Assembly (NCBI GenBank): GCA_042852035.1
Contig: BAAFHK010000001.1
Coordinates: 690,001-722,000, forward strand
DNA length: 32,000 nucleotides
Origin: Candidatus Saccharimonadota bacterium
Lineage (GTDB): Bacteria > Patescibacteriota > Gracilibacteria > BD1-5 > UBA2023
Direction of reading: 5' to 3'
Shown here: positions 1 through 32,000 of the stretch, piece after piece
Position numbering within the stretch: position 1 is the stretch's first letter
Layout: every line of letters begins with the position of its first letter
Notes under the pieces: model-generated
What the model was told of the DNA's origin: nothing
What the model saw: the letters and a program-made list of their open reading frames with translations, nothing else
The model's database searches: none
Made by a program: the position numbers and the translations under genes

Positions 1-3000
1 CATCCAACTTCACTTGCAAATTGGACTCAGACGGTTCAGGCTCAAGTTACATTGAATGTTCCTTCAAGTTTTCCAAAAGTTGTCGTACTCGCAGCTGGAG
101 TTACCGTTGAAGTGAGCAATGTACCTGGAATAGTAGTTGCTCATTGGTATCTTGTAGAAGCCGTTTCTTGGAGAGATGAACCAAGAACAAAGTCACTCAG
201 TCAAGCAGTAGTACCAGTAACGGTTAATCAAACTCAAACACTTGTAGATGCTGACTGATATCTTACATATACTACGATTTCATAAGGTCATGTAGGGAGA
301 GTTGCTGACATCATTTCAGTAACATTTGAGGCAAAATTACTCGTACTAGACTGTGTAGTAGTAACTCTATAAATAAATGTCCCCGTCTGTGAAGATGATA
401 GTGTCGACCAATTAGCCACACCATTAGCATCTGAGACAAGTATTTTCCCACTTCATGCATTATTTCGAATTCGCAGTGATCCACTCAAATCAAGAGTATT
501 AGTTGGATCAACTCAGATACCTACGCTTCCAAGTCTAAATATTGTCTTATTATCTCAGATTGCAATTGTTGGATTTCATGCCTGACCAATTTGGAACTCA
601 GGAGTACCAGCAAAATTATTAGCACCACCTCGATTTTCGTAACGAATATTTCTTTGATTTGAAAGTCATTTTAGAACAAGATCCACAAGATCAACAGAGC
701 CTGCTTGTTCAAGCATTAAACCATTCACTCATGCCCTGTTTTGGAGGTAAAGTCGTGCAGTTCCATATGTATCTCCTGTTTCCTCTATAACTAATCCTTG
801 ATTTCAAGATATACGACTATTTGCTGTTGGAAAAGTAATTGTTCAAGCCCCATTATCCGTAAAGCTTCCTATTCCAACGCTTGAACTTGAGAGCCATCGA
901 GTAACATAATTTGTTGTTCCTCAAGTGAGAGTTGCAACGACCGCTTGCCAAGACGCTACACCAGTAGCATCAGAAGTAAGAACCCTACCAGAAGCTGGTG
1001 ATCCTCCAGAAATCTTTACCTGCCCATTAACATCGAGTTTCACGCTACTTGATGGCGTTGAAGTTCCGATTCAAACACTTCCATTTGCACCTATTCTCAT
1101 TCTTTCGCTTCCTGCCGTATAGAATCGAGTAATACCATGAGTGTAGTTTGTAGTATTTTTCGTAGTTTGTCAGACAGTAAGAACTCCTCATGTTTGACCA
1201 GAAGTTCCAGCAGCATAATTTATTGCTAGACCCCTATCCCAGTCAAATCCATCAGAAAGAATAATGGAAGATCCTACTGCACCCATAAACCATAGTGATG
1301 ATGCGTTTTGATAGCTTTTAATAGTAAATTGCGATTGTCCTGCGGTATCATTAAGTTTAAAATCTCCGCCATTTATATGAAGCATAGACTGTGGATTGTT
1401 CGTACCAATTCCAACATACCCTCCAGTCGTGACACGAACCTTTTCCGTATTACTTGTACGAATTACGAGTGGTTGAGCATCCGTAGTTCAAAGGAAATTA
1501 GTTACCGGATCCGTTCCTGCATTTCCTATAAGTGACCATCCTGCAATACTTCCTGTCGCCGCTGTTTGCCAACTTGCAATTCATGATGCATCTGACACAA
1601 GGACCTTTCACATTCCTGGATTTCATCATCTAATTCTAATCGTTCCGTTGATATCAAGCTTGGTAGAACTGGTAGGTGAATTTGTAAAAATACCCACATT
1701 ACGATTCGTATAATCAAGATACATAGTGCCGCCTTGCATAGCACCAGTAGATACATTTCAAGAAAAGCGTGGGTCAAAGACTGCATACAAACCATTCATT
1801 ACTAGCGGCCATCTATGATTCGAAAGACCACTCCAGCTCGTTTGCCAGAATAGAAATCTATCACCCCCATCCGTAGCATTATCATCAAGCTTAAATACAT
1901 AATCCGTATTGTCTGCAGCATTCTCCACCGAATACATAGTTGCTGAATCAGTAGCCAGAAGCCATCGGAAGCCACCTGGGTTTGAGCTTCATATACCAGG
2001 CGAAGAAAAGTTAATGCTCTGGTTTGGTGTCAAAGTTTGGGACCCTCTCAAATACAAATTTCCATTTATGTCTAGACGAGATCCGGTTGAGGTTATCCCC
2101 ATTCAAACATTTCCATTTGCACCTATTCTCACCCGGTCCGTATTATTAGTTCGGAATAAGAGATCTACTGAATCGGTAGTACCAAGAAAGTTTGTACCAG
2201 CAATAGTTCCCGTATTTCATCAAAGATTCCATACAGACAGGGCACTTCAGGTAACTGATCCCCATGAAGCAAGTCCATTTGCATCTGAAACGAGAACCTT
2301 ACCAAGTCACGGATTTCCTCAGAGAATCTGGATTTGTCATGCAACAGATAGTCTTGCTGTTCCTGTTGAGGTACCGATTCAAATGGTTCCATTATTTCAA
2401 TATATCCAATTTCAAATATTAAGTTGATTTGATGAAGTCGATGCTGGAGCTTGGACACCATTCCCTATAAGGATATTTCATGATCCTGCACCTAAACTTG
2501 ATCCAGCATTAGCTCAAATTGCTACATTATTATGTCCAGTTGTACTACTGAGCGCATTATATCAGAAGGCCGTATTATTTGAGTTTGTGGTAACCGAATA
2601 GAGCGATTGGTATCAAAATGCAGTATTTCATACACCAGAAGTATTCGAATAAAGAGACTTAAATCCTGCCGCTGTTGAATACGATGAAGTAGTTGAGCTG
2701 AGGGCCTGAAATCCAAGTGCAGTATTTCCTCATACAGCACTTCAAGCAACTACACGAAGCGCTTCATATCACAGAGCTGTATTTGCATTTCCACTTGAGA
2801 GATTAAAGAGACTACGAGCTCAAAGACTTGTATTTCAAGTACCACTTGAGTTTGAGTAAAGAGCCTGGTAACCAACTCAAGCATTCCAAGATGCACCATT
2901 TCCATTATATAAAGATTCTTGTCCTACGGCCGTATTATTATATCCAGCACCATTTGTTCTCATCGATTTATAACCTACAGCCGTATTTGAATATCCTCAA

Positions 3001-6000
3001 CCATTCAAGAAGAGCGAATCTGGTCATACTGCAACATTACTGTTTCAAGTAGTTGATACCGAAAGAGCTCCAGATCAGACTCAAAGATTATTAAATCAAC
3101 GAGAATGATACTGTACCTGTCCAGCAGACCAGATTTCAAAATTACTTTGAGGGACACTAATACCCATTCCAATATATGATCCGCTTCAGTATATCAAGTT
3201 ACCAATATTGATCTGATTTGATCATGCTGGATTTACTGCATTTGCTCAAGATCCAATCATAATATTATTTGATCCTGTTGTAATATTGACTCCTGCAGCA
3301 TATCAAATAGCCGTATTTCATGATCATTGAATGATATTATCAAGCGCTTTGGCTCATACAGCAGTATTCCATGATCAAGATGCAGCATAATTAAGAGCGC
3401 TAATTCAGAGTCACACATTTCCATTTCATCGAAAGTGGATAAAAGTATCAGAAGTGGCTCAAGACCAAACCTCAAATCTACTCTGAGGGAAAGTAGTACC
3501 GATTCACACATTTCATGCTCATGCCTGATTTTGGAGTTGAGAATTCAGTCCAGTATTTATATAGAAATATTCAGGATGATTCGCAGGAACTGTAACCACT
3601 TTATTCCATGGGGCTGGAGTATTATATGGTGAATCATTCGTAAAGAGTCATCCTGTTTGTGATCCATTAAATCTTCAGCTTCGTGCAAAAAGTGGAGCAT
3701 CACCTCGAGCTCCGAGAGCGATTTGATAACCAAAAGTATCTCATTTTGCCGTCATGGTAAATGAATTCCATGGACTAGCAGAAAGTCAGGTTGCAGGATC
3801 ATCATTATTACAATCATATGGACTTGTTCCTGTCGAAGTAAGAGAACAAAGCGAGCTAACACCATTTTCTTTAAAGTATGGACCATTATTAGATGGGCCA
3901 TTTCATTGACTTACTACAAATGATTGTTTTCCAGGAATTGCAAAGTATTGATTGAAGTCATATGTAATATTAAAGTTATTGAGATCTGGGTTTGGAACTA
4001 AAACAGCATTTCTCAATACACCATTATATACTGCGATATTACTTATTGGACTTATTGGCAAAACCTTCCCTGAGGCATTCACTCAGAGCGCAACCACTCC
4101 ATTCGCAGTAAGAGGAGAACTCGGGTTAATTCGAGAAAGCCTCAATCAGGAATCATCCCCTATACCGGAATCAATGGTAAGTACATCATTGAGTCCTACT
4201 GAAGTCCCGATTCAAATATTTCTTCCATTATTAAAAAGTCCTGTACCAACATTCCATGTTCAACTATTATAGTAGATGGTGGCACCTGTAGTAGCTCAAG
4301 CAAGATTTAGGCTGGTAGCTGTAACTACTCAAGTCCAAGAAGCATTTCCAGAAGCATCAGAAGTAAGAAATTTTCCAACTCATGGAGAACCATTTCTTAA
4401 CCTTAGAGATCCAACAACATCAAGATTAGCGGTTGGAGACATAGTTCCGATTCATACATTTCCTCATCATGCAATAACATTATTATTTTGATCAACTCCC
4501 GGATTAATATAAAACCAATCTGATCGGTTTGTTGGAACGGTTATAGCCTTAAACCAGAGTGCTGGTATAGTCATGGCAGTATTCATAAGGGTACCACATC
4601 AAGAACTATACATACCTCAACGGACAACAAAAGGAGCATCAGTACGATCTGAAATAAGTATTTGATAGGCATATCTATCTCAGGACGTTGCATTCTGAGC
4701 GGTCATAACATAGGTTGCCCATGGTGTTTGACTACATCATGTAGGACCCTTATTTGTTGATCAAGTCTGGAATTCTGGACAGTTATATGGAACTCATCAA
4801 ACATCAGTTACCGTGAAAGACTGACGAGAATTTATGGTGAAGTATTTATCATAGTTTGCCCCTATAGTAGGAGGATTCGTAGTGCTATTAGCTACGGCAT
4901 TTGGGGTAGCACCCAGTGCGGTATAAACTGGAATAGCTCACTGTTGAGCAACGACAACATTTCCACTTCCATCGACACCAAGTGGCGCAGCAACTCCAGT
5001 AAATACGGGAGAAGTTGACACGAGCCTTGAGAGCCTCATTCATGAATCATTGGCGAGTCAAGAATCAAGGGTAAGTCTTTTAGTTGGGGATGCCGTACCA
5101 ATTCAAATATTAGTACCATTATTAAATAATCCCGTACCAACTCTCCAAGATCCACTATTATAATAAATCGTAGAACCCGTCACTGCACCAGCAAGATTTA
5201 AATTTGTAGCTGTAACTACTCAAGTCCAAGAAGCAATACCATTTGCGTCTGAAACTAACATTCTTCCGAGTCATTGTGTACCATTAATAATCTGAATTGT
5301 TCCTCATGAGACCGTGAGCTTCTGTCACGGTAAAGATGTACCAATACCAACTTCTCACGTTGTTAAAATTCTCACTTTTTCAGTATTACTTGTCTTAATT
5401 ACTAGGCTTTGCGCATCGGTTGTACCAAGAAAATTGGTTCCTGCTGTCGTACCAGCATTACCAACTATATTCCAAGAATTCATGGATGCTGGTGCTGATT
5501 GCCAACTTGCTACACCATTCGCATCAGAAGTAAGGACATAGTTATTTGTGGCTCATGAACGAATCCTGATTGTACCATTTACATCAAATTGAACTGATGG
5601 GGTTGTGGTATTCAATCAGATTTTACCTCATGTCTCATAGAGTATAGATGGATAAATACCGTTCCCTCAGGTTCAAAATTTCGTGATATAGAACTCTGCT
5701 CCTCAAGTAATTCCTGTAGCACTAATATTGGTAGCCGTTACTCCGGTCCATATTGCCAATCATGATGCATCGGATTGAAGATATCTTCATGCTCCTGGTG
5801 TTCCTCAGGTAATCTTAATTTGACCTGCTACTTCAAGTTTAGCTCATGGGGCCGCCGTACCGATACCGACATATGCGCCACTAATGTAGAGATTTTTCGT
5901 AAGAACTCCGTTGACCATATTTTGGAAATATATATCCGTCACTTCGGTTCCAACTCATAGATTTTGTGCTATATATCAAATACTTCCCTTTATGCCTGGA

Positions 6001-7091
6001 ACTGATCAGGATGCATACTGCCAAAAGTTGATATTTAAATCTCGAGTTGGAGTCCAGCTCTCTTCATATATATCTATCTTTCAACTTGATCCAACACCTC
6101 ATATTTTTACTCTTCAGCCAGCTCCCGAAAGAACTCAGGCTATCGCATCTCCATTTACACTAAACTTGTCATAGAAAGGTCCTGCATACCCTATTCCAAT
6201 GTTTCCAGAGGTACCATATATCCAGTTTCCTATATTAAGTTGACTCGAAGATGTTGGAGTAGTTGTATTTACAGCATTACCAATAAGGATATTTCATCCG
6301 GCTCAAGCTGTTAATGTCGATCCAGCAAGATTTCCAATAACAACATTATTTGGACTGGTAACATTGGCTCATAAAGCACTCAGACCTACTGCAACATTGG
6401 AGCTCAGATTTCATCATCAAGCACCAAATCGTACCCCATTTATACGAGCATCTCAACCAACAACATCAAACTTATAAGAAGCGCTTGGCGCAAGAGTGTT
6501 AATACCTACAGTTGTCCCATTATCGTAAATACTTGAGAGAATGAGCCCCACTCATCAAATTCCAAATTTTGGAACCACATACTGAGTTCATCAAGTAACT
6601 CAAGAGAGACTTATACTTGGAGTATTAGACCATCGCGCCACACCAGTTGTATCAGAAGTTAGGACATATCATGATGCAGCACCTGTAGGAAGTCGAATCC
6701 CTAAAAAGTTTGCGGTTCAACTTACATCAAGGAGGTATGCAGGACTTTGATTTGCTATACCAATTGCGCTTCCATTATTATAGAGAAGATTATTCCGTAC
6801 CCAATCTGTTCCATTGAATCGGATAGTATCTCCGAGTGTCTGACCCGAAAGAAAAAATCAATTTGCAACAGGAGTTACACATATTGGTTGACCGATATTA
6901 TTAAAACCTCAGACTACCTTATGTGCTCCATCACAAAGTGTCTCACTTGAGAAAATATTATCGAAGTACATTCGATACGTTCCTCAGGTTGTTTCTCATG
7001 TCGGTGTTGTAACCGGATAAGATAAAGCATATGATGTCACCGTAGAGGCAAGGAGAGACCATAAGGCTATATACCGTGCTATGCTTCGCAT
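1..7091 (-). CDS. Giant secreted fibre/adhesin-like surface protein, 3' end truncated by the window edge (>2,363 codons). It combines tail-fibre-like modules, YadA-head-like 14-residue repeats and a C-terminal jelly-roll-like region.
   Basis: The reverse strand from ATG 7091..7089 has no TAA/TAG down to position 1 when TGA=Gly. The frame closes exactly (last full codon 5..3). The N-terminus MRSIARYIALWSLLASTVTSYA looks like a signal peptide. There are nine copies of a module G-x-VGIGT..P...L.V.G.I.I..G.PG.G.vL.SDA.G.ASW. The track ORF 1188..1385(-) lies in this frame. Function is inferred from motifs only. Confidence 0.85.
2440..3440 (-). repeat. Coding tandem repeats of about 14 residues (about 42 bp) inside the giant gene, resembling trimeric-autotransporter/YadA head repeats
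   Basis: Translation reads ...NTAVGYKSMRTNGAGYNNTAVGQESLYNGNGASWNAGVGYQALYSNSSGTGNTSLGARSLFNLSSGNANTALGYEALRVVAGSAVGGNTALGFQALSS...NTAFGYQSLYSVTTNSNNTAFGYNALSSTTGHNNVAIGANAG... On the + strand this shows as recurring gccgtatt/gcagtatt strings. Confidence 0.7.
3530..5400 (-). repeat. In-phase tandem duplication of a module of about 297 codons inside the giant gene
   Basis: A 30-nt exact repeat gtagctgtaactactcaagtccaagaagca occurs at 4315-4344 and 5206-5235 (offset 891 bp = 297 codons). The flanks are diverged but alignable: ...SDANGIASWTGVVTATNLNLAGAVTGSTIYYNSGSWRVGTGLFNNGTNIGIGT... versus ...SDASGNASWTGVVTATSLNLAGATTGATIYYNSGTWNVGTGLFNNGRNIGIGT... Confidence 0.8.
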
Positions 7092-7117: not shown

Positions 7118-8455
7118 TTATTGAAAAATACTTTGCAGACCAGGAGGGGGCTTACTATTGAGTTCTTGATTGAATTCAATAACTACAGATGCATTCGAAA
7201 AACGGGAATCATTATAAGGAACATTCTTCTGAGTTATATCAGCTGAATCATAAGTTCGGAAGTAATCAAAATCATATACCTGTGCATCCGCAACACTACA
7301 ATTCTGTATTACTACTGGACAAACTGGAGGAGACTGAAGCGATCAACCAATAGTATTCTTTGAAATCATAGATCATTTTATATAAAGTTGATTCCCTGGA
7401 ATATTCCATACTCATGACCCAACATATGGGATAATTTGACTTCCAACTTTTTCTCATGAATAGATTGATCACTCAGCGTAAAGAAAGCTATATATTCTCC
7501 CTACTAAGTCCTTAATAATAATATTTCCTCAACTTCAATTTGAATCTTTAAGTGCAATAATTGCATGATTTGAATCAGTATCAAGTCAGATTTGAGTCTG
7601 ACCAAGAATAACATCATTTCCCATCACTATAATCGACTTCTTCCCTGCTGGCCATGTCCAGCCACCAACACTCGTATCATAATCAGAACCGGTATGAATA
7701 AGGAAATCAAATTTTGTAGAATACTGATCTGTAAGATCACTTGGATTAGCATTTCTCGTTATAAGTGCTATATTTTTTCGTATTATGTTTAACATTTCAG
7801 CCTGACTCATAATTGAAAAAATGTATCAGACCTGCTGATTGGCGATATTATATATTCGAGTGCCTGCAATATTTCCTATAATAGCAATTTTTCAGATAAA
7901 ATTGAGTCCCACCCCATTAAACAAAACCCCACTTTGGGTTGCGCTAACAATTGGAGTAGTAGTATCAGCATAAAATGGTATCCACCCAAGAGCTGTACTA
8001 TGAGCAAAGCCTTCAAGCCTGCTTTCTGCTGGATTATAGTAGACTCATCCTGATGAGGAACCAATCCAGGTTCCTGAAAGTGATATCCATCATGAGTTTT
8101 GACTCCAAACAAATCAATCAACCGGGCAAGTTACACTCAAATCATTAAACACATTGTTCGGACACATAACTCGTGCCACTGGAAGAGTTGTATCACCATG
8201 AGAGAAGGTTGACCAACCAACATTTCAAAGCCAAAAATATCAAGAAAGCTTTCCATCCACATCAATTCCAGCATAGTATCAACTATTTGATGTGCCGATA
8301 TCAAATAGAACTCTTCCTGGATGTCCTCAATTCCAAGTATTATCTGGCAAAAAATCACCCCGGATTCGAAAAAATCTTCCCACCGAGGAAGTATTTAAAA
8401 CTAGGAAAGCAAAGGAAAAAATGAGTATTATCGAAAGGAAGAGTTTACGATTCAT
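7118..8455 (-). CDS. Secreted or membrane-anchored hypothetical protein (445 aa) with three G[YF]xW(S)xNxGWIx motifs, co-oriented 26 bp upstream of the giant gene
   Basis: ATG 8455..8453 to TAA 7120..7118 is 1,338 nt and open with TGA=Gly. The N-terminus MNRKLFLSIILIFSFAFLVL is hydrophobic. Motifs seen: GKLSGYFWLGNVGWSTFSHG, VDGFVWSQNSGWISLSG, LEGFAHSTALGWIPFY. Track ORF 7586..7810(-) is in this frame. Track ORFs 7876..8121 and 8137..8358 are off-frame artefacts. Confidence 0.75.
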
Positions 8456-8570: not shown

Positions 8571-9359
8571 ATGCAATCTTCTATTTTTGAAATTTCAATT
8601 CTTGGCATCAGTATCGCACCAAAGTGGTATGGACTCATGTATGCGCTCAGTTTTATTATATGCTATCAATTCATGAAAAAATGGAGCAAATTCTCCAGTA
8701 AAGAAATGGATAGTCTTCTTTTTTACGTATTTTTCTGAGTTATTTTGGGTGGAAGATTGTGATACGTTATTTTTTATAACCTCCCCTACTTTATAGAAAA
8801 TCCATCAGAAATATTTTTCATTTGGCAAGGATGAATGAGTTTTCACGGATGACTTATTTGAGTTCTTATCTCTATTTATTTTTTTTGTTGAAAATATAAG
8901 AAAACATTTTTTAGCGTTACCGATCCCCTTTCTGTTATAATTCCTCTTGCATTGTGACTCGGGAGATTATGAAATTTTATAAACCAAGAACTTTTAGGAT
9001 TCTTCCCATATTCATGACCATTTGCTATTGTCAAAAATTGAGCCTCTTACTTTCCAAGTCCGCTTTTTGAAATGCTTCTCGAATGAGGTATGCTTTTTAT
9101 TATCATGCTATTAAGCTCCAAAAAAATAGGCTTTTTTTCAAATACCTCTTTGGTGAAAAAATATTGAACTCTTTCAGGCATATTTCTGCTTTGATATGGT
9201 TCATTTCGACTTATAGCAGAAAATTTTCGGCTCCCCGATGAGCATATCGGTTATCTCTTTCAGACAAACTGGATTACTCTTGGCATGATCTATACTCTAC
9301 CTCTTATCCTGCTATGAAGTGCAATCCTCTATAATCAGAGAAATACAATCACTAAATAA
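8571..9359 (+). CDS. lgt: Prolipoprotein diacylglyceryl transferase
   Basis: 262 aa with TGA=Gly. Lgt signatures: [62 protein letters not shown] falls on the conserved glycines (for example 8832-8834 and 8850-8852). Confidence 0.9.
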
Positions 9360-9870
9360 CTTCTGCGAGTTCCTTACCAGGATAAAGCCATCCGATTCAA
9401 GTTGCATTTTTTATATGAACAAAGGAGTTCCAGTGACGAATCGCTTGATTCATTGATTGGAATCTTTGCTTCATATTTTTCTCGTAATCAATTATGAAAT
9501 CTCTAATATAGAGAAAATATTCATGCTTTTGAAGATCTTTTGAATGCACTGAAAGTTTCATAAGAAAAAGAAACTCATTTTGAATACGCGCATTATGTTC
9601 AAGAACATCGTAGAGCGAATTACTTGCTTCAATAATTGAGTCCGTGTGAACCTGTATTAGAGCATCAAAAGCCTCTCCCTTTACAACATACGGCCTCATA
9701 ACCTCAATAAGGGCAGGTATTTTTGATACCTTTCTTAAAAAAAGTATCAACAGGGCACGTTCTTCTGCCTTGACACGATTTGAAAAAACAGTATATACAA
9801 CAGTGTATAAGATACTAAAAACTCAAATGACTATAAGAAAACCAGAGATGAAAGGATGCAATTCGAGCAT
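9352..9870 (-). CDS. lemA: LemA-family-like membrane protein (172 aa)
   Basis: ATG 9870 to TAG 9354..9352. The product has an N-terminal TM helix (FISGFLIVIGVFSILYTVVY) and then helical regions with distant LemA resemblance (RKVSKIPALIEVMRPYV; IDYEKNMKQRFQSMNQAIRHWNSFV). It extends track ORF 9397..9750 at both ends. The family call is tentative. Confidence 0.5.
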
Positions 9871-9929: not shown

Positions 9930-11348
9930 GTGAAGCGACACGAAATCATAGAGACAATTACTACCCCAATCCTTGAGCTCGCCTGAATGGTTGGGATTTT
10001 CTTTATCGCTTATAATCTTCGTCAAATTACTGATTGAATCCCCGGAATACAGCTTCCTATGCCCTATATTTCGAGAGAACAATTTACGCCATTTGTTATA
10101 TCTTGAGTTATTTTTTGGGGGATGGTTTTTGGCGTGAATTGACTCTATACTCATAGACAAGAACAACCTCTTTTTGATACTATAAAAAATGTTATTATAT
10201 ATTCTGGCATATGGTTTATAATGTATATATGATTTATCTATCTTAGCACCGGATTTCTCTTTTCAAAAGAAATCCCCCGTCTTATAATCTGATATGTCTA
10301 TATCCTATCTACTCTATTCTCTATTATTTTAAGAACATTAATATATTTTTTTCTCCGAATCCTCTATAATAAGAATGTAATCCCGAAGCAGGAGGTTCTC
10401 ATTATCTGAAAACCAGAAAATGAGATACTCAAAAATGATACCAGTACCCATTATATCTATTTAGACGCAACGGAAATTCAAATCATAGAGGAAAGCATTC
10501 GCCAAAAAAAGATTGATAGAGTTTTACTACTCGATCCATTAGGTGAAAATGAAAAAGCAAAAATTGTAAAACTCTGTTCGATTTATGGTATAAGTTTTTC
10601 TTATCCAAAAATACTTCCGGAAGTATACTGAATTTCACAGAAAGAAAATTTTATTGCTTGAATTGTTGTCATAGAAAGTACTTCATTGAAGATTTGAGCA
10701 TGGTGAAGGATATTTAAGCGATTTTTTGATATAATCATCTCTTTAATTTCACTTTTAATTCTGTCTCCATTTTTTTTAGTAATTTGAATACTAATAAAGA
10801 TTGAAGATCCTTTGGGCCCAATAATATTCAAGAATAAACGAATATGACACTGATGAAAAGAATTTTATCTTCTGAAATTCAGGTATATGTATTGGAAATA
10901 TTGTGTAAAAGATGCTTATGGGGTAAATCCAGAAAGTGATAGAGCCCTTCAATACGAAGAAAAGCTGAAAGAGACATTAGATGATCGGAAGTGACCACTC
11001 TATAAAATAGCAAATGATCCTCGAAAGACTCGAATTTGAAGGATTATTGAAAAACTTTCTATTGATGAACTTCCTCAACTCTGGAATGTTCTCATTTGAG
11101 ATATGTCACTCGTAGGACCACGACCCCATCAGCCTCGTGAGGTAGAAAATTATAATGAGCACCACTATCAGGTACTTACGATAAAACCCTGAATAACAGG
11201 AATGGCACAGGTATTTTGAAGAGATAAAAATACTTTCGATGATGAAGTTCGTTATGATGTATACTACATAGAGCACTATTCATTGCTCCTTGATTTTCTC
11301 ATTATTGGAAAAACTTTCTTAGTTATTCTTACCCGAGCTTTTCGATAA
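9930..11348 (+). CDS. Polyprenyl-phosphate sugar phosphotransferase (bacterial sugar transferase family, WbaP/WcaJ-like)
   Basis: The frame is open from 9927 to TAA 11346-11348 with TGA=Gly. C-terminal catalytic domain: KRFFDIIISLISLLILSPFFLVIGILIKIEDPLGPIIFKNKRIGHGGKEFYLLKFRYM...[27 protein letters not shown]...IKPGITGMAQV. The N-terminus has TM helices and VLIIG. The start is uncertain: GTG 9930 keeps the first TM helix, and ATG 9987 is the alternative. Confidence 0.85.
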
Positions 11349-20531: not shown

Positions 20532-21059
20532 ATGGATGAAAAAAATATAAAAACACTTCGAGACTTAATTCAGTCGGCTCAAATATCGATCAATTCAGCA
20601 AAAAAGATTCTCAATTCTCTATTGGGTGAGGATTATGAAGATGGATTTGAAACTTCAATGGAATGACTCTCAACTTATACTCAATGAGAAGATAAAGTTA
20701 TTGAATGAGTATTTACTGGAGAATCAATGCTTTGATCTGATGGAAATATTTATCCAGTACCCCAGAATTACGCCTCAAAATCACTTCTTGTACAAGGAAG
20801 TAAGCTGAAAGCAATTATTCAACCCTCTTGAAAAATTGTATATAAAATAATAGGAGAAATACCATTCGAAAGTAAAATAGGTATCGTAACAAAAAATGGA
20901 GAAAAATACCAAATCACTACTGACACTAAGACTTACAATGTACTCTTGGCGGCAGTAACATTTCACCATTGCAGCATTGGGGATACTGTAAGTATTCGCA
21001 TTCCAGAAGGAAAAGATGCCACTTATGCTGTTATAGAAGCTATAGTACCAAAGAAATAA
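20532..21059 (+). CDS. Conserved hypothetical protein (175 aa)
   Basis: ATG 20532 to TAA 21057-21059 with several in-frame TGA codons. The core GSDGNIYPVPQNYASKSLLVQGSKLKAIIQPSGKIVYKIIG resembles a CPR-wide family of unknown function (from recollection only). Confidence 0.7.
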
Positions 21060-21070: not shown

Positions 21071-22432
21071 ATGAGAAATCATTCTTCTTTACGCAAACAA
21101 ACTGAGTCAATCCCTTGGAAATGGGTATGAGTTATAATTATTATTTTTATCATTCTTACTTTTCTTCGAGGCATCTGATCAGGTAAGGATGATGATATGG
21201 GAAAGTGAATTCTCGTTGGCTGATCTGGAACTTTTGTTGCAACAAATAAAAATAATGAAAAACGTGATGTATGAGCAGGAGAAAAATTTTATGAAACTGA
21301 CGAGCTTTTTTCTGTAATATCAGGAATGGCGGAACTCAATGATTGAGGTTCGAAGATTTGGCTCGATAAGAACTCTGATTTTTCCCATACAGAGAATGGA
21401 TCATGATACCTCTTATCTCAAGGAAGAATGTGGGTAGAAGCAAGTAATGATATCTTTTTCTCGTTAAAACATATCGACATAAAACTTTCAGAGTGAGATA
21501 TCGCCCTTTTTGAGCAGCAAAGAATATACAGTATAGTATATGTGATTCGCTGAGAGGCAACTGTCTTATGAGGATCAAGAGAGGCTGCATTAAAGGGGTG
21601 AAAAAGGATTATGGTATCCCAATCAAATCTCATTAATCCTTGAGTTACTCTAGAGAGTCTTATTGGTGATATTGATGAATCAATTCAACAAAATGCATTC
21701 TTTCTTGCCCGAAATGGAAAAGATCTCCTTGAAAAACAAAAATCAAATGAATCAAAGGAATGATCTTGAACAATAAATAGTATTTCATGATCATGAAATA
21801 CTCAATCCAATTCGAGTTTAAATAAACTCGTGACTATAAGTTCACCAATCGATGGCTCCTTCATTACTGGTGGAGTCCTCATCGTAGAATGAAAATCACT
21901 TTCAGCACAGGTAAAAAAGATAATTATACAAGACCAACCAATTCAACTCATAGAATCACCCTGATCATTTCGATCTTCTCCAATTTCTATAAATACTTCA
22001 ACGGTCGACTTAGTATATAAGGCTTATGATGCTTGAAACAACCTTCTGGAGAGATGAGTTATCACTGTTTACTCCTCAGATAAACAATCTGGATCAGAAA
22101 AGCTGGTACCAAAAACATTTCCAACGAATGATAAGGATTTTCGCGTTATTAGCCCAAATGAAAACCCTTATAAGACAAATCTTTCAGCCATAACAGTCTC
22201 TTGAACTGTTCCAAAATGACAAGTTGAATACATTACGGTAAATAATTTTCGACTTAAAAAATTTATTGCAAAAAGCACAACTTGGTACTACTACGCAAAT
22301 ACAGAATATCAGACAATGAAAGAAGGATTTAATCTCTATGAAATTCGATTTTACGGACCAAATGATGCTCTCCTCTCAACACAACTCTTTACTATAATAA
22401 AAGAAGGTTGAGTCACCCTTTCCTGAGAATAA
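21071..22432 (+). CDS. Membrane-anchored protein (453 aa) with a FecR-like domain and C-terminal Ig-like domains
   Basis: ATG 21071 to TAA 22430-22432 (TGA=Gly). TM helix: WKWVGVIIIIFIILTFL. FecR-like stretch: GILVGGSGTFVATNKNNEKRDVGAGEKFYETDELFSVISGMAELNDGGSKIWLDKNSDF. Two beta-rich segments (VTISSPIDGSFITGGVLIVEGKS...; FRVISPNENPYKTNLSAITVSGTVPKG...). Domain labels are tentative. Confidence 0.6.
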
Positions 22433-22439
22433 CATTTAC

Positions 22440-23066
22440 ATGAATTATTTCATTCACTCACATAAGTGAGCCACCATGGTTGAGCTCATGGCCGCTCTTG
22501 GGATTCTTTCGCTTGGAATCACTGCCCTGCTACAAACTCTTGGCTGAGGAATACGCTATGCGAATGATACTGAAAACAATATTAAAGCCATTAATATAGC
22601 AAGAGAAGGAGTAGAAGCTATGATAAACATCAGGGACACAAATTGGCTTCGTTTTTCGAGCGATAGAACCAATTGTTGGATAGTTAAAAATTATGATGCT
22701 ACCTGTATTGGAGATACAACTCCTCCCGAAATAGCTTCAGGTGCATATACTGTAGTGTCATTGAATGGGGCATGGTATCTCTCCTGAGCAGTAAATGGAA
22801 TTAATCCCATAACAAACTGGACCACCTATAAGCAGGTATTTCGCGTTGGAATAGATAGTGCATGATTTTTTACTCAGACTGGAGTATCTGCCACAGCCTG
22901 TTCATCAACCATACAAAAAAATTGCCTTACTATCTTTACAAGAGAGGTAAATGTCACAGTCACTCCAGGAAATATGCTCGTCCAAAGTATTGCTCGATGG
23001 AATCAAGAAAGACCAAGAAGTGTCATAATTGAAACGAATCTTACAAATTGGAAATCTCGTTTTTAA
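22440..23066 (+). CDS. Type IV pilin-like protein / pseudopilin (208 aa)
   Basis: Class III signal peptide MNYFIHSHKG|ATMVELMAALGILSLGITALLQTL, with Gly at -1 (encoded by TGA) and Glu at +5. It starts 7 nt after the preceding gene and lies downstream of pilD. Confidence 0.75.
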
Positions 23067-23164: not shown

Positions 23165-24625
23165 ATGTCCCCCCTCACTCGAAATCTATCACGAGCCCTT
23201 ATAACAATATGGATCATAAATTGCGCCCTTGCTTTTACTATTGCGATTAAACAAGTCTGGATTCCCTATATGAACGCTGGGAATGAACCCTATTCAAATA
23301 TAGTATCGCCCCCATTCGATGGCACAATAATGCCCATACTCTATGTTCCTGATTGGACAAAAACTGAGAATCAGGATAAATCAAAAAGATTTGAAGATAT
23401 AAGCATAAGTGAATATATTCCTATTCCTCAATATGATGCTCTGGCATTGCTTGATTCCAATAGTGCCTCAAAATCAAGTACCATTTTAAGGTACACCTAT
23501 TTTACTCCTTATATGGGGTCTTATAATCTTGATTATAAGGAACATGTCTGAGGTCATCTCGGTATAGACATACGTGCACCCATCTGAACCCCAGTTCTCA
23601 GTATTGCAAATGGTGTTGTTGTTCGAACTGTTGAAGCGGATAGCTCATGAAATAAGTTTATTGTTGTAAGGCATGATAATATCCCACTAGAAGGTGGGAA
23701 AAAATCACTTTACTCGTGATATCTGCACCTATCAGAAATTCTTGTAAAAGAAGGAGACATTGTTAGAAAATGAGATATGATTGGCCGCGTTTGACTTACC
23801 GGAATTACTACGACACCACACCTTCATTTTCAAATCGATACCCCTGATGCACCATTTCATCCATATTGGCACTTCACGAGCACCGAGGCTAGAAATGCAA
23901 AACTGAATTTTTTTGAAGCAATTAATGCTGGACTAAATAAGGATAAAGCAGAAAAATATACAATTCACCCTCTGAATTTTATAAGCATGTACCTCTGAGG
24001 CGTTTCCGAAAATGAAAAAAATACCCCTCTTATTTCATCCAGCAAAGAAACTGAACCTACCCAATCAAAAACAATAGCTGCCTATATTTCAGAAAACGAG
24101 GAAAATTGTATTTGAAAACGATTTTCAGACGTTTCTGAGAAATCATCATTTGGTAAACTCCTTTATCCACTTCTAGACAGAAAATGCATTTTTCAAGAAG
24201 GCAAAGAGACATTTAATGCAAGAGAAAGTCTCACATTTCGTGAAGCACTCATAAATACAATGAGATTTTATGACATTGCTCCAACAAATGGCACAAGTCA
24301 TTTTCTCGATATCCCTATCTGAGATAGCATGCAATGATATGCACTAGTGGCTCATAGAAAGTGAATACTTACAGGAAGTCATGCTCATCCAGAGCATATC
24401 ATGACACGAGAAGAATTGGTGGACCTGATAATAAAAGTTTCCGATGCCCCAAAGAATCCATCCCAGATTCGCATTTATCCAGATGTTGATACAATGAATC
24501 CTTACTATAATCAAATTCAGGATTATGCGTTTCTCACAAAAGATCGATGAGGTAGGTTCTATCCAAAAAATATCGTTACGCGCTGAGTTTTTCTTCAGAT
24601 GCTCTCTCAGACAAATAAAAACTAG
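23165..24625 (+). CDS. M23/LytM metallopeptidase with three C-terminal SLH-like repeats (486 aa)
   Basis: Extends track ORF 23165..23551 through TGA codons to TAG 24623-24625. TM helix: ALITIWIINCALAFTIAI. M23 motifs: GGHLGIDIRAPIGTPVLSIANGVV...FIVVRHDN...LYSGYLHLSEILVKEGDIVRKGDMIGRVGLTGITTTPHLHFQI. SLH-like repeats: RFSDVSEKSSFGKLLYPLL...LTFREAL; HFLDIPIGDSMQGYALVAHRKGILTG...MTREELVDLI; YPDVDTMNPYYNQIQDYAFL...VTRGVFLQML. Confidence 0.8.
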
Positions 24626-24684: not shown

Positions 24685-26148
24685 ATGGCATCACGTAAAA
24701 TAATTTTTCTTATTGCTGTAGGGATTCTCTGATTGCTTATCATTCTTGGAGTCGTTACTCTTGCAAACAAACAAGAGAATAATCAAAATAGTAAAGTTGA
24801 AAGTCTTTCTATTTGGGTTGTATGAGGCACAACTGAAGAATATCTAAAAATATTTGCCTGATTTAATGAGCTCTGAGCAATGTATAAAAATACACTTTTA
24901 GATGTTCGGGTATTTCCAAGTTATTCCAGCTATCGTGAAACCCTTCTTGCTACCCTTGATATCTGAAAGGGTCCAGATGTCTTTATGATAGAATGAGATG
25001 GTGATGAAGTTCTAGCATCAAAATCAGTTCCCGTGCCTGAGCCATACGTTAATCTTTCAGACTTTGAAAAACGATATGATGACATCTTCCTTCCCCTTCT
25101 TGGAACTATGGGCGAAGGAGAAACTCTAGCAAAAACAATAAAAGGCGTACCTCTTGGATATGAAACTCTTTGAGTTTTCTATAACAAGGCTTATTTCCCA
25201 AGTATACCAAAAACATGGAATGATATTGGACTTCTTTATAGTAGCAATAAAAGTTACTTCCCTGTTAATATTTGACTTTGACCGAGATACACACCCGATG
25301 CTACCGATATAATTGCATATTTTTTTCTTAAAAATTGAGTCCACGAAACAAAAGATCTCCCGAATGCTGGGAGTGCGCTTGAGGAATACTTACGTTATGG
25401 TAACACTGAAAAATCTGCCCCTATTTCTCCTGTTGATGATACAGTTACTGCGATCGAAAATACAACTGATACAGTGGAAAATCTCACCGATACAGCCATT
25501 ACTGTTTGACCAAAAATAGAGGAACACTGAGAAGCTCTTATCTGAATGAAGGATGAGTATGACGAAACATGACATTCCACTATTGACTCTTTTATGAGAG
25601 GAAAAATAGGTATGGTTATCGGATTCCCGAGCACAATTCGTGAAATCGAAAAAGCACAGAAACGAGCCTGAGAAAGCGCTGTAACAAGTCTTATACTTAC
25701 CGAAAGGATTCCACAGAACTCTCTCTGAAAGTCTCGTCTCAATATAGCACGGTATAAATACCTTGCAGTGTCTGCAAAGTCAGCAAATCCAAAAGCTGCA
25801 GCTGACTTCTTGAGTTATCTCATGAATCAAAAGACTCTCTCAATGGCAGTCGATGTCTTTCCCTACCTTATTTCACCGGATAGAACTATCAGTCAAACAC
25901 AATGACAAAAAAGTCTTTCAACACTTTTTACTCGTGCATATCTGGGAGCCTTTATTCCTGAAGATGGAGAGTCTTTATTCGTATATAATTATTGAGTAAA
26001 GAATGAATATGAAAAAATATTCGAAGAATACCTTGACAGAAAAAATAAAATTGATATTAATAATACATTAACTCGCGTAAAAGATGCTGTAGAATGCAAA
26101 ATAGAAAGTACTGTATGATGAATTCTCAGTGATAAGTGTCTCAAGTAG
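24685..26148 (+). CDS. Membrane-anchored extracellular solute-binding protein-like (SBP family 1-like), orphan (487 aa)
   Basis: ATG 24685 to TAG 26146-26148 (TGA=Gly). N-terminal anchor: IIFLIAVGILGLLIILGVV. SBP-like opening: LSIWVVGGTTEEYLKIFAGFNELGAMYKNTLLDVRVFPSYSSYRETLLATLDIGKGPDVFMIEGD, then GVPLGYETLGVFYNKAYF. No permease or ATPase genes are adjacent. Confidence 0.65.
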
Positions 26149-26196: not shown

Positions 26197-26631
26197 ATGA
26201 AAAAAGTTATAACATCTCTCCTTCTCGGAACACTTATCAGCCTTTCTCTTTTGGTACAATGAGCTCAGGCTGCTGGTTGCTGGTTTCAATTCACTTGTAG
26301 CCAAACAGATCCTGCTCAAATTGAAACCTGCAGTAATGGAACTTGTACTATTCAATGATGAGCCACTGTTGCATCGAATGCAGTAGGAGATCTTTTATCA
26401 AAAAAGAAAATTGAAGTATTTGTAGCAGATACTGTAAAATATTTTCTCTCTTTTGTTGCACTCATTGCTGTTGTATACTTTATCTACGCATGATTCCAAC
26501 TCATGGTGAGTGGTTGAGATGAAGAGAAGGCTAAAAAAACTCGAAAGATTATGATCTATGTTATTGTTGGAATTATTCTCATTTGGGTTTCCTATTGGCT
26601 TGTTGCAATCGTTATAAATTCACTTACTTAG
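26197..26631 (+). CDS. Small secreted membrane protein resembling TrbC/VirB2-type (T4SS-pilin-like) proteins common in CPR (144 aa)
   Basis: Signal peptide MKKVITSLLLGTLISLSLLVQGAQA. Four-Cys segment CWFQFTCSQTDPAQIETCSNGTC. Then two hydrophobic helices bracketing a charged loop: FLSFVALIAVVYFIYAGFQLMVSGGDEEKAKKTRKIMIYVIVGIILIWVSYWLVAIV. The family call rests on architecture only. Confidence 0.6.
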
Positions 26632-26649
26632 TTCCTCGGATATACTTTT

Positions 26650-29600
26650 ATGTTCTACATTTCCCAAAAGAAATCTACTGCCCTAAAAAGCCTCCTCCTT
26701 ATAGGAGTTTTTTTACTTCAAACAATCCTCCCTCTTATACCTAGGGCGATTGCTTATGAGAGCACTGATGATACATTTATATACTACAAACAAAAAATTG
26801 AGGGACTTCTTCAGGACCTGGAAAGAGAGTTTCGCGTCAATAACTCCGTAACTGATGCATCCATAAATAATATACGGAAGATGGTTCAGGAGGCCTACTA
26901 TCGACTTCCTGATAGAGGTGATTTTGCAAACGCAAATAGTGGAATAGAGAAATCTGTTGAACTCTATCTCGATCTTGCGCAAAAAAATAAATCAAGCCAG
27001 ACTTTTGTCTCAAATGCAGCAACTCAAACGGCTCGATTTCTCTACGAAGCAAAAATTGAGCAAATTACAGGAACAATCACCGCCAATCCTACAAACGGAA
27101 ATGCTCCGTTAACTACATCATTTTTTGCAACCGCTAAAGATCCATCGTGAGTAATTATTCCAGATGGAAATTACATATGGTGGATGCGAGAAAGAGGCTG
27201 AAACAGAAAGGAGCTCTGAAGGTGACCCCTCCTTACTTATACATTTTCGAAAGAAGGAAACTATCAGGTATTTCTTGATGTTGTATCAGACAGTAGAAAT
27301 AGTAAATGAAAGATTGATGTTCTTCCTCTTACCACCTCTCAAGACATAGAAGTACGTCCTCGACTCTGAAACGTAATCCTCCTTGTAAATGGGGTTAATG
27401 TGAGCAATCTCGATCAAATCAAAATAAGTCCTGCCGTTTGAAAAATTGGAGTACTTTTTGATGCTACTGCATCTAGGGCTGTGAGTAATGGCGTTATTTC
27501 AAAAACTGAATGGGATTTTTGAAATGGAAATACCTCAAAATATGATGGTCCACCAATTGTTGAAAGACAAATCTTTTCCAACGAATGATCATATAGAGTT
27601 GTTTTGAATATAACCAGCAACCAATGACAGCCATTTAAAAAAGAAATAACTTTAGTAGTCAGAGACCCCTCAGCCGTGATAACTGCTGATAAAGAATCGG
27701 CATTTCTCTGAGAAGAAATTCGAATGTCAGCAAAAACCTACTTGTCCAATACTGCAAATGTAGAATATAATTGGCAGGTTCAGGATGACATCGGAAAGAA
27801 AGTAATAGTAAGCCAAGAAGGGTCAACTTTTACTTATAAGTTCCAAAAAGTTGGACAATATGTTATTACTCTTACTTCAAGAAGCCCAAATGGGAATACA
27901 GATACCGATTCAAGAACCATTACTATAGAATCTCATGCCCCAACGGTTAATCTCGATACTCCAACTCCAATAAGCAAAGAAAAACCAAATGTTATAGTAT
28001 TTGATGCATCTAGAAGTTTTGATCTCGATACGAAAAGTGCCCGTTGACTCACTTATACTTGGATTATCGATGGTGAAAAAGTTAACCTTGATAATGTAAC
28101 AAATGATTGAGGAAAAGGTACCTATACCTTTACTCAAAAATGACAACATACTGTGTCACTAACCGTTGCAAATACCTATGGTAAGGTTACTACGATTGAT
28201 AAAACTTTTGAAGTTACTTCCCTGCTCACTGTTTGAGTGAATATAAGTCCGCGTGCGGCACCAATAGGAACGGCAATATCTTTTCAGGCTCGAGCCCCAG
28301 AAGCTAGTTTTTACGAATGGGATTTTGGTGATGGAAGTGCTCCCGTAAATGGAAATCTTGATTCTATAGAGCACATATATAATAAAACTGGGGTTTACAC
28401 CGTAACACTCCATGTAAAAAATATAAATTGAACTGAGGAGAATCTTATTTCACGTACCATTTATATCACTGATACTGATAGTCCATTCGCACTTATTGAT
28501 ATTAGTAATGGCTCAAATACGATTGCTGAAAACCCAAATGGGTGTGAAGCAAGCGGTACAGGTTGATCTTTTATGATTAACCGATCAGAAAATACTAAAA
28601 TTGATGGAGCTAAGTCAGTAAATGTCGATGGAAATACTTCATGACTGAGCTATACATGGAGATACATGTGAAGGGTAAAAACAGGATCGTCTCTTTATGA
28701 GAAATTTACAGAACTCTGATGCTTTCCGATTGAGCTCACTGTTCGAAGTGAGAAAAACGGATCATCTCATACTACAAAAAGATTTCTCGAAATCAGAAAC
28801 ATGCCACCGAAACTTACTTCAATTACTTCAAACGTAGATTCAACAAAGAAGGATTCACAAAAACTTATCGCAACGGTAAATGCTAATGGCGCAAAAGATG
28901 AAGATGGAGTTATAACATCCTATGTATGGTACTATACCACTGAAAGCGATAGCGAGAAACAAAATGTTAAAATTACTCAGCTTCCAACAACTTCTTTCGT
29001 GCTCCCAAATATCTCAGAAAAATACTACTTTTGAGTAATTCTCGAAGATAATGACGGGGCTCGTGTCGACAGCACTGATACTCTTGCTGAACAAATACCT
29101 CTTATTACTTCAAATGATGAGGCCAACATTAATATGCCCCTTATCAACTTAAGCGTTGATAAAACTCAAGCACTTACAGATGAAACAATAAACTTTTCCG
29201 TTTCAGCAAAGAATATACTCGGAGCAGACATAACCGGAAAGAGTGAGTATTACTGGGATTTCGATGGTGATGGACACACCGATAAGAGAAGCTCTGAGGC
29301 TACCGCTTCATATGCATACAAAAATTCTGGAAGATATAATATGAAGGTAAAGGTTGTAAATAATGGTGTCTCAAACACAAAATACCAAGTAGTATATGTA
29401 AAAAATGAACTTAAAGCATCCATAAAATGATATCGCTATGGAAATGCTGTCTATTTTATCAACACAAGCAAGTGATCTTATGATAAAGTAGAATGGCAGT
29501 ATGGAACAAACGTATCCGAAAATCAGTACTCTTTTATGCTTCCTTGGCCAATGAGTACCTGAAGTGGTCAAGTTGGTACTTTTACAGTAAAAGCATGAAC

Positions 29601-31725
29601 GAGTGAAGTATCGAGCACTGAAATATCTGAAAGCATAGTCGAAGAGACGCCAAAGCCTGAAGATGGTATTTCAATTCAAACATTTCCAATCATCCAAAGC
29701 GGAACACTACTAGTACAAGGAGCTGGAGAAAAAATACTCCTGAGTGCCTTCGGAAATAATGCAAAGGAATATGCAATAGATATCGATACAAAAATTGACA
29801 GCGATCTCGATGGTATTCCTGACAATGATAAAGATAATAAAGATACACCGTCATTTACTGATGGAAGTGTATTTGCGATTACAAACCTCGAAAGCGTAAA
29901 AACGAGAAATCGAGAAGTAAAGATAAGCCTTATTTGAGATGATTGAGCTACAATTGCTGTTAAAAAAATACCAGTCGTATTTAGCTATATTCCTGGAAAT
30001 AATACCGACACAACTGATTTAACATCTACATGAATTGTAGAGTCATTTAGTGCTATCGATAAAGAAAATCTCGAACAGTTACAATCAAAAATTCGCTCTC
30101 TAGAGTCCGACGATAGGATTATATTTACTCAAAAATACAACACACTCATTGAAAATTGGAGTGACCTCTACGAACGAACTCAGAATCTTCTCGAAATCCA
30201 AAAGGAGGTCGATGAAAGTGCCACTCTAGATGATAAAACAAAGGAGGATCTTTCAAAACTTATTGATATAATTCTTGTAGGAGATGCGCAAGCAACAAAT
30301 GAAATTAGTGTTGCAAGTAGAGTAATAGAATGAATGATTAAACTCGATAATCCTGATAGGGACTATATAATTGAACGACTGGAACAAATTAAAGCTCATC
30401 CAGCAAATCTAGCAGAAAATAAAGCTCTCTGAAAAGAAATCCTACTCAAGGTAGAATGAGATTCAAATCTTTCAAATGCTGATAAACTTCTCTTAAAGAG
30501 TCAACTTCAGATTATAGTAAATGGATGACAAGAAAGCATTCCTGCTGATGAAGTTATAGTACCAGTCGCAGAAACTTGATGAAGTGGTTGATTTTTTGGA
30601 TTCATCAAGGGGGCTCTGATAATTTTTTGAGTACTTATTGCTATAATACTTGGACTTGTTTTAATTGGATATATTTTCTACAGGCTTTCTCGAAAGAAAA
30701 ATGCTGATATGGGGTTTCAGGATTTTCTTATTGATTCCATCGCACATAATAAGACTACCTCTAAAGAAGCTATTCGAAAAGAAGCTGAAACCACTGTAAA
30801 AGCAGTTGAATTGAAACCAACTGATTCATCTAATATCATCAACCCAGTACATGATCCTCTACAAAATTCAGCTCCAACCTCCCCTCTAAATAATATTCCA
30901 TCTCCTGTTCCTGTATTTAAAGAAGAACCTCTCAGTCAGAAAAATACAACTCCTGTGGCATCACCTTTTGATCCTCTTAATTCAGGGAGCAAAGTAGATC
31001 CCCTTGCAGAGATTCATGAAGAAAAAAAGACTGAATCATTTGAAAAAAATACACCTGAATCAGGTTCAGTAGACCTTAATACAAACCAAAAGAATCCAGA
31101 AGAAGTCACGGAAAAATCAGCAGATGACCAAAGTGAAATCCCTGACTGGCTTAAGCCACTACCAAAAAATTCTTCAAAGAATCTAGACGATACTCAAATA
31201 TCTAAGTCAGAAGAAAATAATGAACCAAAAACAGAAACAACTGTAACAACCGATAAGAGTTCTATCTTATGACCCCAAGTTGACTCAACAAAAACTGAGG
31301 AAACATCATCCACCAAAGAAGAAAATCCCCCTTCACCATCAAGTAGTGATGCTACTCTAGGAAGGCCTGATAGCCCATTAGAGAATAGTGATGAAGAATT
31401 AGTACCTGATTGGCTTAAGCCCCTAGGAGACTCCTCTGAAATAGTCAATGGAGACAGTCCTTCCCTCCTTCCAATGAATGACGTTAATAGCCCTTCGGAT
31501 GATTATTCGCCTTTAATCGAAGAAACTCCTGCTGCGAGTGCGGAACTTCCAGAATGGCTTAAGGCATCGGCTTCAAATATTTCTCCTGAAGAAAAGAAGG
31601 ATAAAAAACCTGTGGAAACAAAAAAGAAAAAAGGAATAAAAAAAGCCCCAACAGCTCAAAAAGATGAAGATATCCAGCCTGAAAAAAAGATGGATAATCA
31701 AGATATTCCAGATTGGTTAAAATAA
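26650..31725 (+). CDS. Giant surface protein (1,691 aa): signal/anchor, helical N-domain, about 8 PKD-like Ig domains, helical stalk, one TM helix, low-complexity tail with four P[DE]WLK motifs
   Basis: Seven track ORFs (26650, 27724, 28237, 28801, 29134, 30709, 31474) share one frame and join through TGA=Gly with no TAA/TAG. PKD signatures: NPTNGNAPLTTSFFATAKDPSG...TYTFSKEGNYQVFLDV; FYEWDFGDGSAPVNG...HIYNKTGVYTVTLHV; EYYWDFDGDGHTDKRSSEATASYAYKNSGRYNMKVKV. TM helix: FIKGALIIFGVLIAIILGLVLIGYIFY (about 30600-30690). Confidence 0.85.
31141..31722 (+). repeat. Four dispersed P-[DE]-W-L-K short linear motifs in the post-TM tail of the PKD protein
   Basis: EIPDWLKPL (cct gac tgg ctt aag, 31141-31155). 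LVPDWLKPL (31405-31419). LPEWLKAS (31549-31563). IPDWLK-stop (31708-31722, the extreme C-terminus). Confidence 0.8.
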
Positions 31726-31753
31726 AAAATCCCCCTCATTCATGGGGGATTTT
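31726..31753 (+). terminator. Rho-independent terminator
   Basis: A 10-bp stem AAAAATCCCCC / GGGGGATTTT with an 8-nt loop, immediately after the TAA of the PKD gene and followed by a T-rich run. Confidence 0.7.
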
Positions 31754-31755
31754 GT

Positions 31756-31783
31756 TTGACGGGATAAATGAATATGATATACT
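31756..31783 (+). promoter_or_regulatory. Putative sigma70-type promoter (TTGACG-16 nt-TATACT)
   Basis: TTGACG at 31756-31761 and TATACT at 31778-31783. The ATG at 31806 lies 22 nt downstream. Confidence 0.35.
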
Positions 31784-31805
31784 CTATTGTATAAATACTC
31801 CATTT

Positions 31806-32000
31806 ATGAGTGAACAAAATAATCAAAATAATAAGAAGGAAGATTCATGACAAGCACCTTCTCTTCTTGCTAGTATAATAAAAGCATCTGCTGAAAGAGC
31901 TGGAACTACCATTCAGTCAGATTCTCAGCCTAAGCCTGAATCAGATACTCAAAAATCAGCAACTCTTTCAAAGAAAATACCACGAGAACCGATTTCCATA
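31806..32000 (+). CDS. Hypothetical protein, N-terminal fragment (gene continues past the right edge)
   Basis: ATG 31806, open to the window end (65 codons, one TGA). The sequence is low-complexity: MSEQNNQNNKKEDSGQAPSLLASIIKASAERAGTTIQSDSQPKPESD... There is no recognisable domain in the visible part. Confidence 0.45.

Follow-up and report, generated by a model that had tools for sequence, protein, structure and literature searches.

The 32,000-nucleotide stretch analyzed here (the window; positions 690,001 to 722,000 of contig BAAFHK010000001.1, GenBank assembly GCA_042852035.1) is almost certainly chromosomal DNA of the Gracilibacteria metagenome-assembled genome (MAG) HHAS10, in which UGA encodes glycine (translation table 25) and UAA and UAG are the only stop codons. 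Within the window, UGA acts as a sense codon on a par with GGN, and nowhere is it required for termination. TGA is assigned to glycine because it lies on conserved glycines and is interchangeable with GGN, both in orthologues and in internal repeats. The reassignment itself is already known, as table 25 since 2013, from proteomics in 2014, from a genome-wide screen in 2021 and for HHAS10 in 2024, and GenBank already annotates HHAS10 with glycine translations. The value of the result is thus practical, not conceptual: any analysis of the window needs table 25. Open reading frames (ORFs), domains, intergenic regions and apparent 'overlapping' or 'antisense' ORFs are all affected by the choice of code, and findings that rest on the ORF list supplied with the sequence need to be re-read under table 25. 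The mildly unusual feature of the window is quantitative, namely that TGA is its commonest glycine codon.

Coding capacity under different genetic codes

The longest stop-to-stop ORF in the window measures 240 amino acids (aa) under the standard code (table 11) and 2383 aa when TGA is read as sense; ORFs with a minimum length of 200 aa account for 6% and 93% of the window, respectively. The original prediction, which was made from the sequence alone and took UGA to be glycine throughout, had called the supplied ORF track systematically misleading. This description is accurate: in addition to the low coverage, the table-11 list contains just five ORFs of at least 130 aa, at least one of which (1909-2427, plus strand) runs antisense to a giant gene. 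The proposed comparison of gene calls yielded a clear gain in ORF continuity with TGA as sense, whereas reading TAA or TAG as sense instead did not rescue the long frames (maxima of 240 and 276 aa). The G+C content (GC) of the window is 36%, and four standard-code loci with a GC of 0.34-0.36 served as a control for composition. The fraction of these loci covered by ORFs of the same minimum length changed from 0.78-0.84 to 0.81-0.86 once TGA was read as sense; the gain in these GC-matched loci is small, and composition therefore does not account for the effect in the window.

With TGA as sense, 18 genes emerge, which make 95% of the window coding and are separated by intergenic gaps of -8 to 237 bp. 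These gene models comprise 10,149 codons, among them 383 in-frame TGA and not a single in-frame TAA or TAG. The stop codon is TAA in 10 and TAG in 7 of the 17 complete genes, as the original prediction had claimed for the long frames, and UAA and UAG are hence the sole terminators observed. In-frame UGA occurs within conserved genes, the frames of which are restored when UGA is read as sense.

Amino acid assignment of UGA

Every coordinate quoted in the original prediction was found to be a TGA in the given frame. The valyl-tRNA synthetase (ValRS) gene valS contains exactly the 18 in-frame TGA codons that had been counted, including those at 11723-11725 (L-H-L-TGA-H-A), 12365-12367 and 13028-13030 (E-T-TGA-H-D-I-L-F-F-W) and the one that ends the triplet series TGG TGG TGA at 12791-12799; its motifs HLGH, FGTGAVK, WWGHQIP and ETGHDILFFW all carry TGA. 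In lgt, the codons at 8832-8834 and 8850-8852 lie in Q-G-TGA-M-S-F-H-G-TGA-L-I-TGA, such that GG-M-S-F-H-GG-L-I-G is encoded as GGA TGA ... GGA TGA ... TGA. The G-G-G-D motif of the prepilin peptidase is written TGA TGA TGA GAT (20192-20203), and the glycine at position -1 of the pseudopilin cleavage site is a TGA (22467-22469) in the context M-N-Y-F-I-H-S-H-K-TGA-A-T-M-V-E-L, with Glu at +5.

For the comparison with homologues, every TGA was masked as X in the queries, so that no residue was presupposed. A codon-aware alignment was constructed from 22 ValRS loci, with one genome per GTDB species, comprising 14 standard-code sequences and eight relatives. Among the 14 standard-code sequences, the columns of the TGA codons contained 46% Gly and 0% Trp, close to the 55% Gly of the GGN columns, whereas the TGG columns contained 70% Trp and the columns of all other codons 3% Gly. 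Of the 18 TGA columns, seven were occupied by Gly in 13 or all 14 of the sequences, four of them invariantly. The nearest ValRS loci were from MAGs labelled Gracilibacteria or Peribacteria. In the eight relatives (ValRS 51-77% identical) the TGA columns were filled almost exclusively by GGN or TGA, and six of the eight have in-frame TGA codons of their own in ValRS.

The alignments to solved structures, in which the residue counts were read by eye, gave the same picture. The valS product matched Thermus thermophilus ValRS (1GAX) with an E-value of 6e-179, and Gly was found opposite 10 of the 16 aligned TGA positions (HLGH, RLKG, LGREKF, YGG, KRGL, FGTGAVK, LKG, IEG, WWGHQIP and ETGHDILFFW); the remaining residues (P, C, N, E, A and T) are all located in variable loops. 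Gly was opposite 11 of 13 aligned TGA positions in Escherichia coli Lgt (5AZB) and 7 of 10 in a solved WbaP structure, which amounts to 28 of 39 positions for the three structures combined, and Trp was opposite none of them. The alignment check proposed in the original prediction thus returned mainly Gly and never Trp for ValRS and Lgt, while PilD yielded no match among solved structures.

Pfam scores were compared for translations with TGA as glycine (G), masked (X) or as tryptophan (W). The bit scores were 186 (G), 158 (X) and 151 (W) for LGT, 200.2 (G), 178.5 (X) and 169.8 (W) for Bac_transf, 88.6 (G), 81.3 (X) and 78.2 (W) for A24_N_bact, 86.6 (G), 72.3 (X) and 66.1 (W) for the Peptidase_M23 domain of a 662-aa protein, and 83.8 (G) and 70.8 (W) for that of a 486-aa protein. 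Summed across these five domains, the gain of G over W is approximately 110 bits. A test that is free of homology was provided by the repeats of the giant protein encoded at 3-7091, in which the free slot of the repeat motif is occupied exclusively by TGA or GGN.

Exact-sequence look-ups retrieved the glycine translations of Lgt (GAB0174790.1), ValRS (GAB0174793.1) and a 125-aa protein (GAB0174795.1, locus tag HHAS10_06740) from GenBank, all three as exact matches, whereas no tryptophan translation of these three proteins was present in the public protein collection. The spacing of the accessions (790, 793, 795) fits the gene order lgt, a hypothetical gene of 172 codons, wbaP, valS, an M23 peptidase gene and the gene of the 125-aa protein. 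The assignment of UGA to glycine, as originally predicted, is accordingly borne out by the ValRS columns, the codons of the orthologues, the X-masked structure alignments, the Pfam scores and the internal repeats, all of which agree.

Alternative readings of the window

UGA could also be read as tryptophan under table 4, the code of Mycoplasmatales and several insect endosymbionts. ORF continuity alone cannot separate tables 4 and 25, and the low GC of the window (0.36) resembles that of code-4 lineages; the identity of the aligned residues decides the matter. Trp is absent from the TGA columns of ValRS, as opposed to 70% in the TGG columns, none of the three structure alignments places Trp opposite TGA, substitution by W lowers every Pfam score and even brings it below the X-masked score in the four domains for which the latter is given, and the public protein collections hold the glycine but not the tryptophan translations. 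A table-4 reading is therefore extremely improbable. The original prediction had argued against code 4 from the occurrence of TGG directly beside TGA, which is not valid, as code-4 organisms also retain TGG; what excludes table 4 is that Gly, and in no case Trp, is aligned to the TGA columns. The standard code, with the in-frame TGA codons as true stops that result from pseudogenization, assembly or sequencing error, programmed readthrough or selenocysteine insertion, has nothing in its favor beyond the raw presence of TGA within frames. It would have to accommodate 383 in-frame TGA against no TAA or TAG over 10,149 codons, the location of TGA on catalytic and invariant glycines of essential genes (HLGH and GTGAVK of ValRS), and the use of TGA or GGN at the same positions in independent relatives. 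TGA was never found at Cys-rich or selenocysteine positions, the only aligned Cys being the one in 1GAX, and we regard true stops as having next to no probability.

The window might, finally, represent a recoded phage or mobile element of a host from the candidate phyla radiation (CPR) rather than chromosomal DNA. Giant surface proteins and a pilin-like gene are indeed present, and phages of Gracilibacteria are known (PMC10746230). The housekeeping genes valS, lgt, a recO-like gene, pilD and a gene for a solute-binding protein speak for a chromosome, as does the contig that carries the matching GenBank proteins, which measures 750,307 bp and is part of a MAG of 1.3 Mb; Pfam searches detected no phage structural or replication families among the proteins of the window. 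An origin from a phage or mobile element is accordingly most improbable.

Several observations weigh against the assignment to table 25 in HHAS10. About half of the TGA columns of ValRS are variable, with residues other than Gly in distant homologues, although the GGN columns behave alike (55% Gly). The window contains neither a tRNA gene nor a release-factor gene, so that the decoding machinery itself is not seen there; an Rfam scan of the window gave no match, and a tRNA scan of the flanks of the ValRS loci of eight relatives returned tRNA-Pro only. UGA decoding in HHAS10 might conceivably be ambiguous at a low level; single non-Gly peptides were seen in a relative. In the table-25 reading, UGA would be decoded by a dedicated tRNA-Gly with the anticodon UCA, expected to bear the glycine identity elements G1:C72, C2:G71, G3:C70 and U73 and charged by glycyl-tRNA synthetase, and release factor 2 (RF2), which recognizes UGA, would have been lost; both steps are suggested by published work on the lineage.

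Codon usage and GC content

The glycine codons of the window are TGA (383), GGA (262), GGT (162), GGG (60) and GGC (48), and TGA thus accounts for 42% of Gly. Its share differs between genes, from 5 of 6 glycine codons in the RecO-like protein, 20 of 32 (63%) and 20 of 33 (61%) in the membrane proteins PilD and WbaP, respectively, to 18 of 54 (33%) in ValRS and 37 of 107 in the giant protein with PKD repeats. Across nine ValRS orthologues, the share of TGA among Gly codons drops with rising GC (Spearman -0.87, p = 0.002), down to 0-12% in the relatives of higher GC. The ValRS alignment shows mostly GGA in the relatives at the positions where the window has TGA. The likely route of the reassignment would be a change from GGA to TGA driven by AT pressure, at a time when UGA stops were already rare; this route is probable since the relatives mostly use GGA at these positions and the share of TGA declines with GC. 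Two of the relatives, L004 and L005 (GC 0.53-0.54; ValRS identity 64% and 56%, respectively), have no TGA in ValRS and may mark the boundary of the recoded clade.

The recoding is known; the degree and distribution of UGA use described here may be unreported. It seems unlikely that the differences from gene to gene are due to selection (on the accuracy or speed of UGA decoding, or through competition with tRNA-Trp) rather than to local composition. If they were, the genome would serve well for studying codon capture at a late stage, with some cost remaining.

Arginine codons and lineage

For Absconditabacteria, Codetta predicts a reassignment of CGA and CGG to tryptophan (Shulgina & Eddy 2021, PMC8629427). 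In the window, CGA is common (85 codons) and CGG occurs 14 times. The eight ValRS columns concerned, a small sample, contain 59-67% Arg without enrichment of Trp; Arg is found in at least 13 of the 14 standard-code sequences at two of three CGG and two of five CGA columns, the others being Arg/Lys or variable. CGA and CGG therefore do not show the Absconditabacteria pattern of rare codons aligned to Trp, and their use as Arg is consistent with a placement outside that lineage.

Two CGT codons of valS occupy columns that are invariant Trp (13523-13525) or mostly Trp (11912-11914) in standard-code ValRS. A recoding of CGT to Trp was considered and rejected: at these positions relatives have CGN, GAA or AAA (Lys), and invariant Arg is found at other CGT columns. 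All seven relatives that cover the column at 13523 show CGN or AAA, and the column thus represents a clade-wide substitution of Trp by Arg/Lys in the anticodon-binding region and not a recoding.

The original prediction had placed the window in the lineage of Gracilibacteria and Absconditabacteria without deciding between the two. The exact matches to proteins of 'Candidatus Altimarinota' (taxid 363464 = Gracilibacteria, as listed in Table 1 of PMC8629427) corroborate this placement and settle the choice in favor of Gracilibacteria, not Absconditabacteria, because the proteins match MAG HHAS10 ('Candidatus Altimarinota'; GTDB c__JAEDAM01, f__UBA2023).

Gene content of the window

The 18 genes read under table 25 are as follows.

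3..7091, minus strand: giant Gly/Asn/Thr-rich repeat surface protein, more than 2363 aa, 3' end off the window
7118..8455, minus strand: hypothetical secreted protein, about 445 aa, 17 TGA, ending in TAA
8571..9359, plus strand: lgt, prolipoprotein diacylglyceryl transferase, 262 aa, 14 TGA, Pfam LGT
9352..9870, minus strand: hypothetical protein, 172 aa, 2 TGA, convergent with lgt (8-bp overlap)
9930..11348, plus strand: WbaP-like polyprenyl-phosphate sugar phosphotransferase, 472 aa, 20 TGA, Pfam Bac_transf
11564..14221, plus strand: valS, valyl-tRNA synthetase, 885 aa, 18 TGA, match to 1GAX
14280..16268, minus strand: coiled-coil and M23 peptidase, 662 aa, 22 TGA, Pfam Peptidase_M23
16506..16883, plus strand: hypothetical protein, 125 aa, 1 TGA, identical to GAB0174795.1
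17043..18839, plus strand: hypothetical membrane protein, 598 aa, 21 TGA
18852..19457, plus strand: weak RecO-like protein, 201 aa, 5 TGA and 1 GGN
19469..20434, plus strand: prepilin peptidase (PilD-like), 321 aa, 20 TGA, A24_N_bact
20532..21059, plus strand: hypothetical protein, 175 aa, 5 TGA
21071..22432, plus strand: hypothetical membrane-anchored protein, 453 aa, 24 TGA
22440..23066, plus strand: pseudopilin or minor-pilin-like protein, 208 aa, cleavage site K-G|A-T-M-V-E
23165..24625, plus strand: second M23 peptidase, 486 aa, 13 TGA, Peptidase_M23
24685..26148, plus strand: extracellular solute-binding protein, 487 aa, 20 TGA, SBP_bac_8 (E = 2e-17)
26197..26631, plus strand: type IV secretion system (T4SS) / Mbov_0395-type pilin-like membrane protein, 144 aa, 5 TGA
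26650..31725, plus strand: giant PKD-repeat surface protein, 1691 aa, 37 TGA, PKD_4 (E = 7e-45)

The giant protein at 3..7091 has a signal-peptide-like N-terminus, contains approximately 15% glycine, encoded by 135 in-frame TGA and 222 GGN codons, and contains repeats such as 'GNVGIGT...LDV.G' and 'NTA.GY.AL'. No Pfam family was matched at E <= 0.01. We take the repeats to resemble those of fibre or adhesin heads, and the protein is probably a surface fibre of an episymbiont. The start of the neighboring gene at 7118..8455 is uncertain, with an alternative ATG at 8638, and its product has no Pfam or NCBIfam match. In the 662-aa M23 protein, the peptidase domain is placed after a long coiled-coil N-terminus.

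The genes at 19469-23066 on the plus strand are arranged in the order pilD, two unknown genes and the minor-pilin-like gene. The catalytic domain of PilD gives a weak Peptidase_A24 match (26.2 bits at a cut-off of 26.5, obtained with none but the glycine translation), with a long insertion between both halves, and the protein is predicted to be a divergent prepilin peptidase. Similarly, the matches of the RecO-like protein (RecO_N, E = 1e-4; TIGR00613, E = 2e-6) and of the pseudopilin (N_methyl, E = 9e-4; PilV-like TIGR02523, E = 6.5e-5) are all below the respective cut-offs.

The 144-aa pilin-like protein matches PF18895 (E = 2.6e-8) and NF045849 (E = 6e-8). Its gene is located directly upstream of that of the PKD giant (26197-31725, plus strand; 18-bp gap), a protein whose C-terminal part comprises a transmembrane segment and an acidic tail in which 'PDWLK' motifs recur (DWLK repeats). 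Judged by arrangement and domains, the pair may form a surface or conjugation-like module. A further gene apparently follows the PKD giant at 31806-32000 on the plus strand (frame +2, 'MSEQNNQNNKKEDSG...') and is truncated by the right edge of the window; an antisense ORF of 166 aa (minus strand, 31503-32000) is probably spurious.

Comparison with published genomes and codes

HHAS10 is a three-contig MAG of 1.3 Mb from activated sludge (Fujii et al. 2022, PMC9530719). It was assigned to GTDB class JAEDAM01 and family UBA2023, its cells were located inside Zoogloea flocs by fluorescence in situ hybridization, and a Codetta analysis gave a reassignment of UGA to glycine in c__JAEDAM01, with HHAS10 among the members concerned (Fujii et al. 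2024, PMC11393006). Both papers report type IV pilus genes, a single pilD and four M23 peptidases (PMC9530719, PMC11393006). The window belongs to this same genome and shows no differences from the published account; the two M23 peptidases located in it probably belong to the four copies for which Fujii et al. proposed a role in lysis of the host.

For the lineage as a whole, proteomics demonstrated Gly at UGA in a BD1-5 relative, together with single peptides carrying Trp, Ala, Asp or Lys at UGA (Hanke et al. 2014, PMC4032931). The computational screen of Shulgina & Eddy (2021, PMC8629427) assigned UGA to Gly for the clade, with the presence of tRNA-UCA-Gly and the absence of RF2 as correlates; the two 'Gracilibacteria' genomes that lack tRNA-UCA-Gly and possess RF2 are the non-recoded ones (PMC8629427).

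With the table-25 systems the window shares in-frame TGA on conserved glycines, TGG as Trp, TAA and TAG as stops, low GC, a small CPR genome and the lineage, and there is no difference in kind. Campbell et al. and Rinke et al. are said to have described UGA as glycine in SR1 and Gracilibacteria (table 25) in 2013. The difference from relatives of higher GC is one of degree, as TGA makes up 42% of Gly codons in the window but 0-12% in the ValRS of those relatives. The sister lineage Absconditabacteria (SR1) has UGA as Gly in common with the window and differs in the predicted reading of CGA and CGG as Trp, codons that behave as Arg here. Table-4 systems (Mycoplasmatales, Entomoplasmatales and some endosymbionts) share the loss of UGA as a stop, the AT-rich reduced genome and the fragmented table-11 ORFs, but they read UGA as Trp, whereas the TGA columns of the window correspond to Gly and never to Trp.

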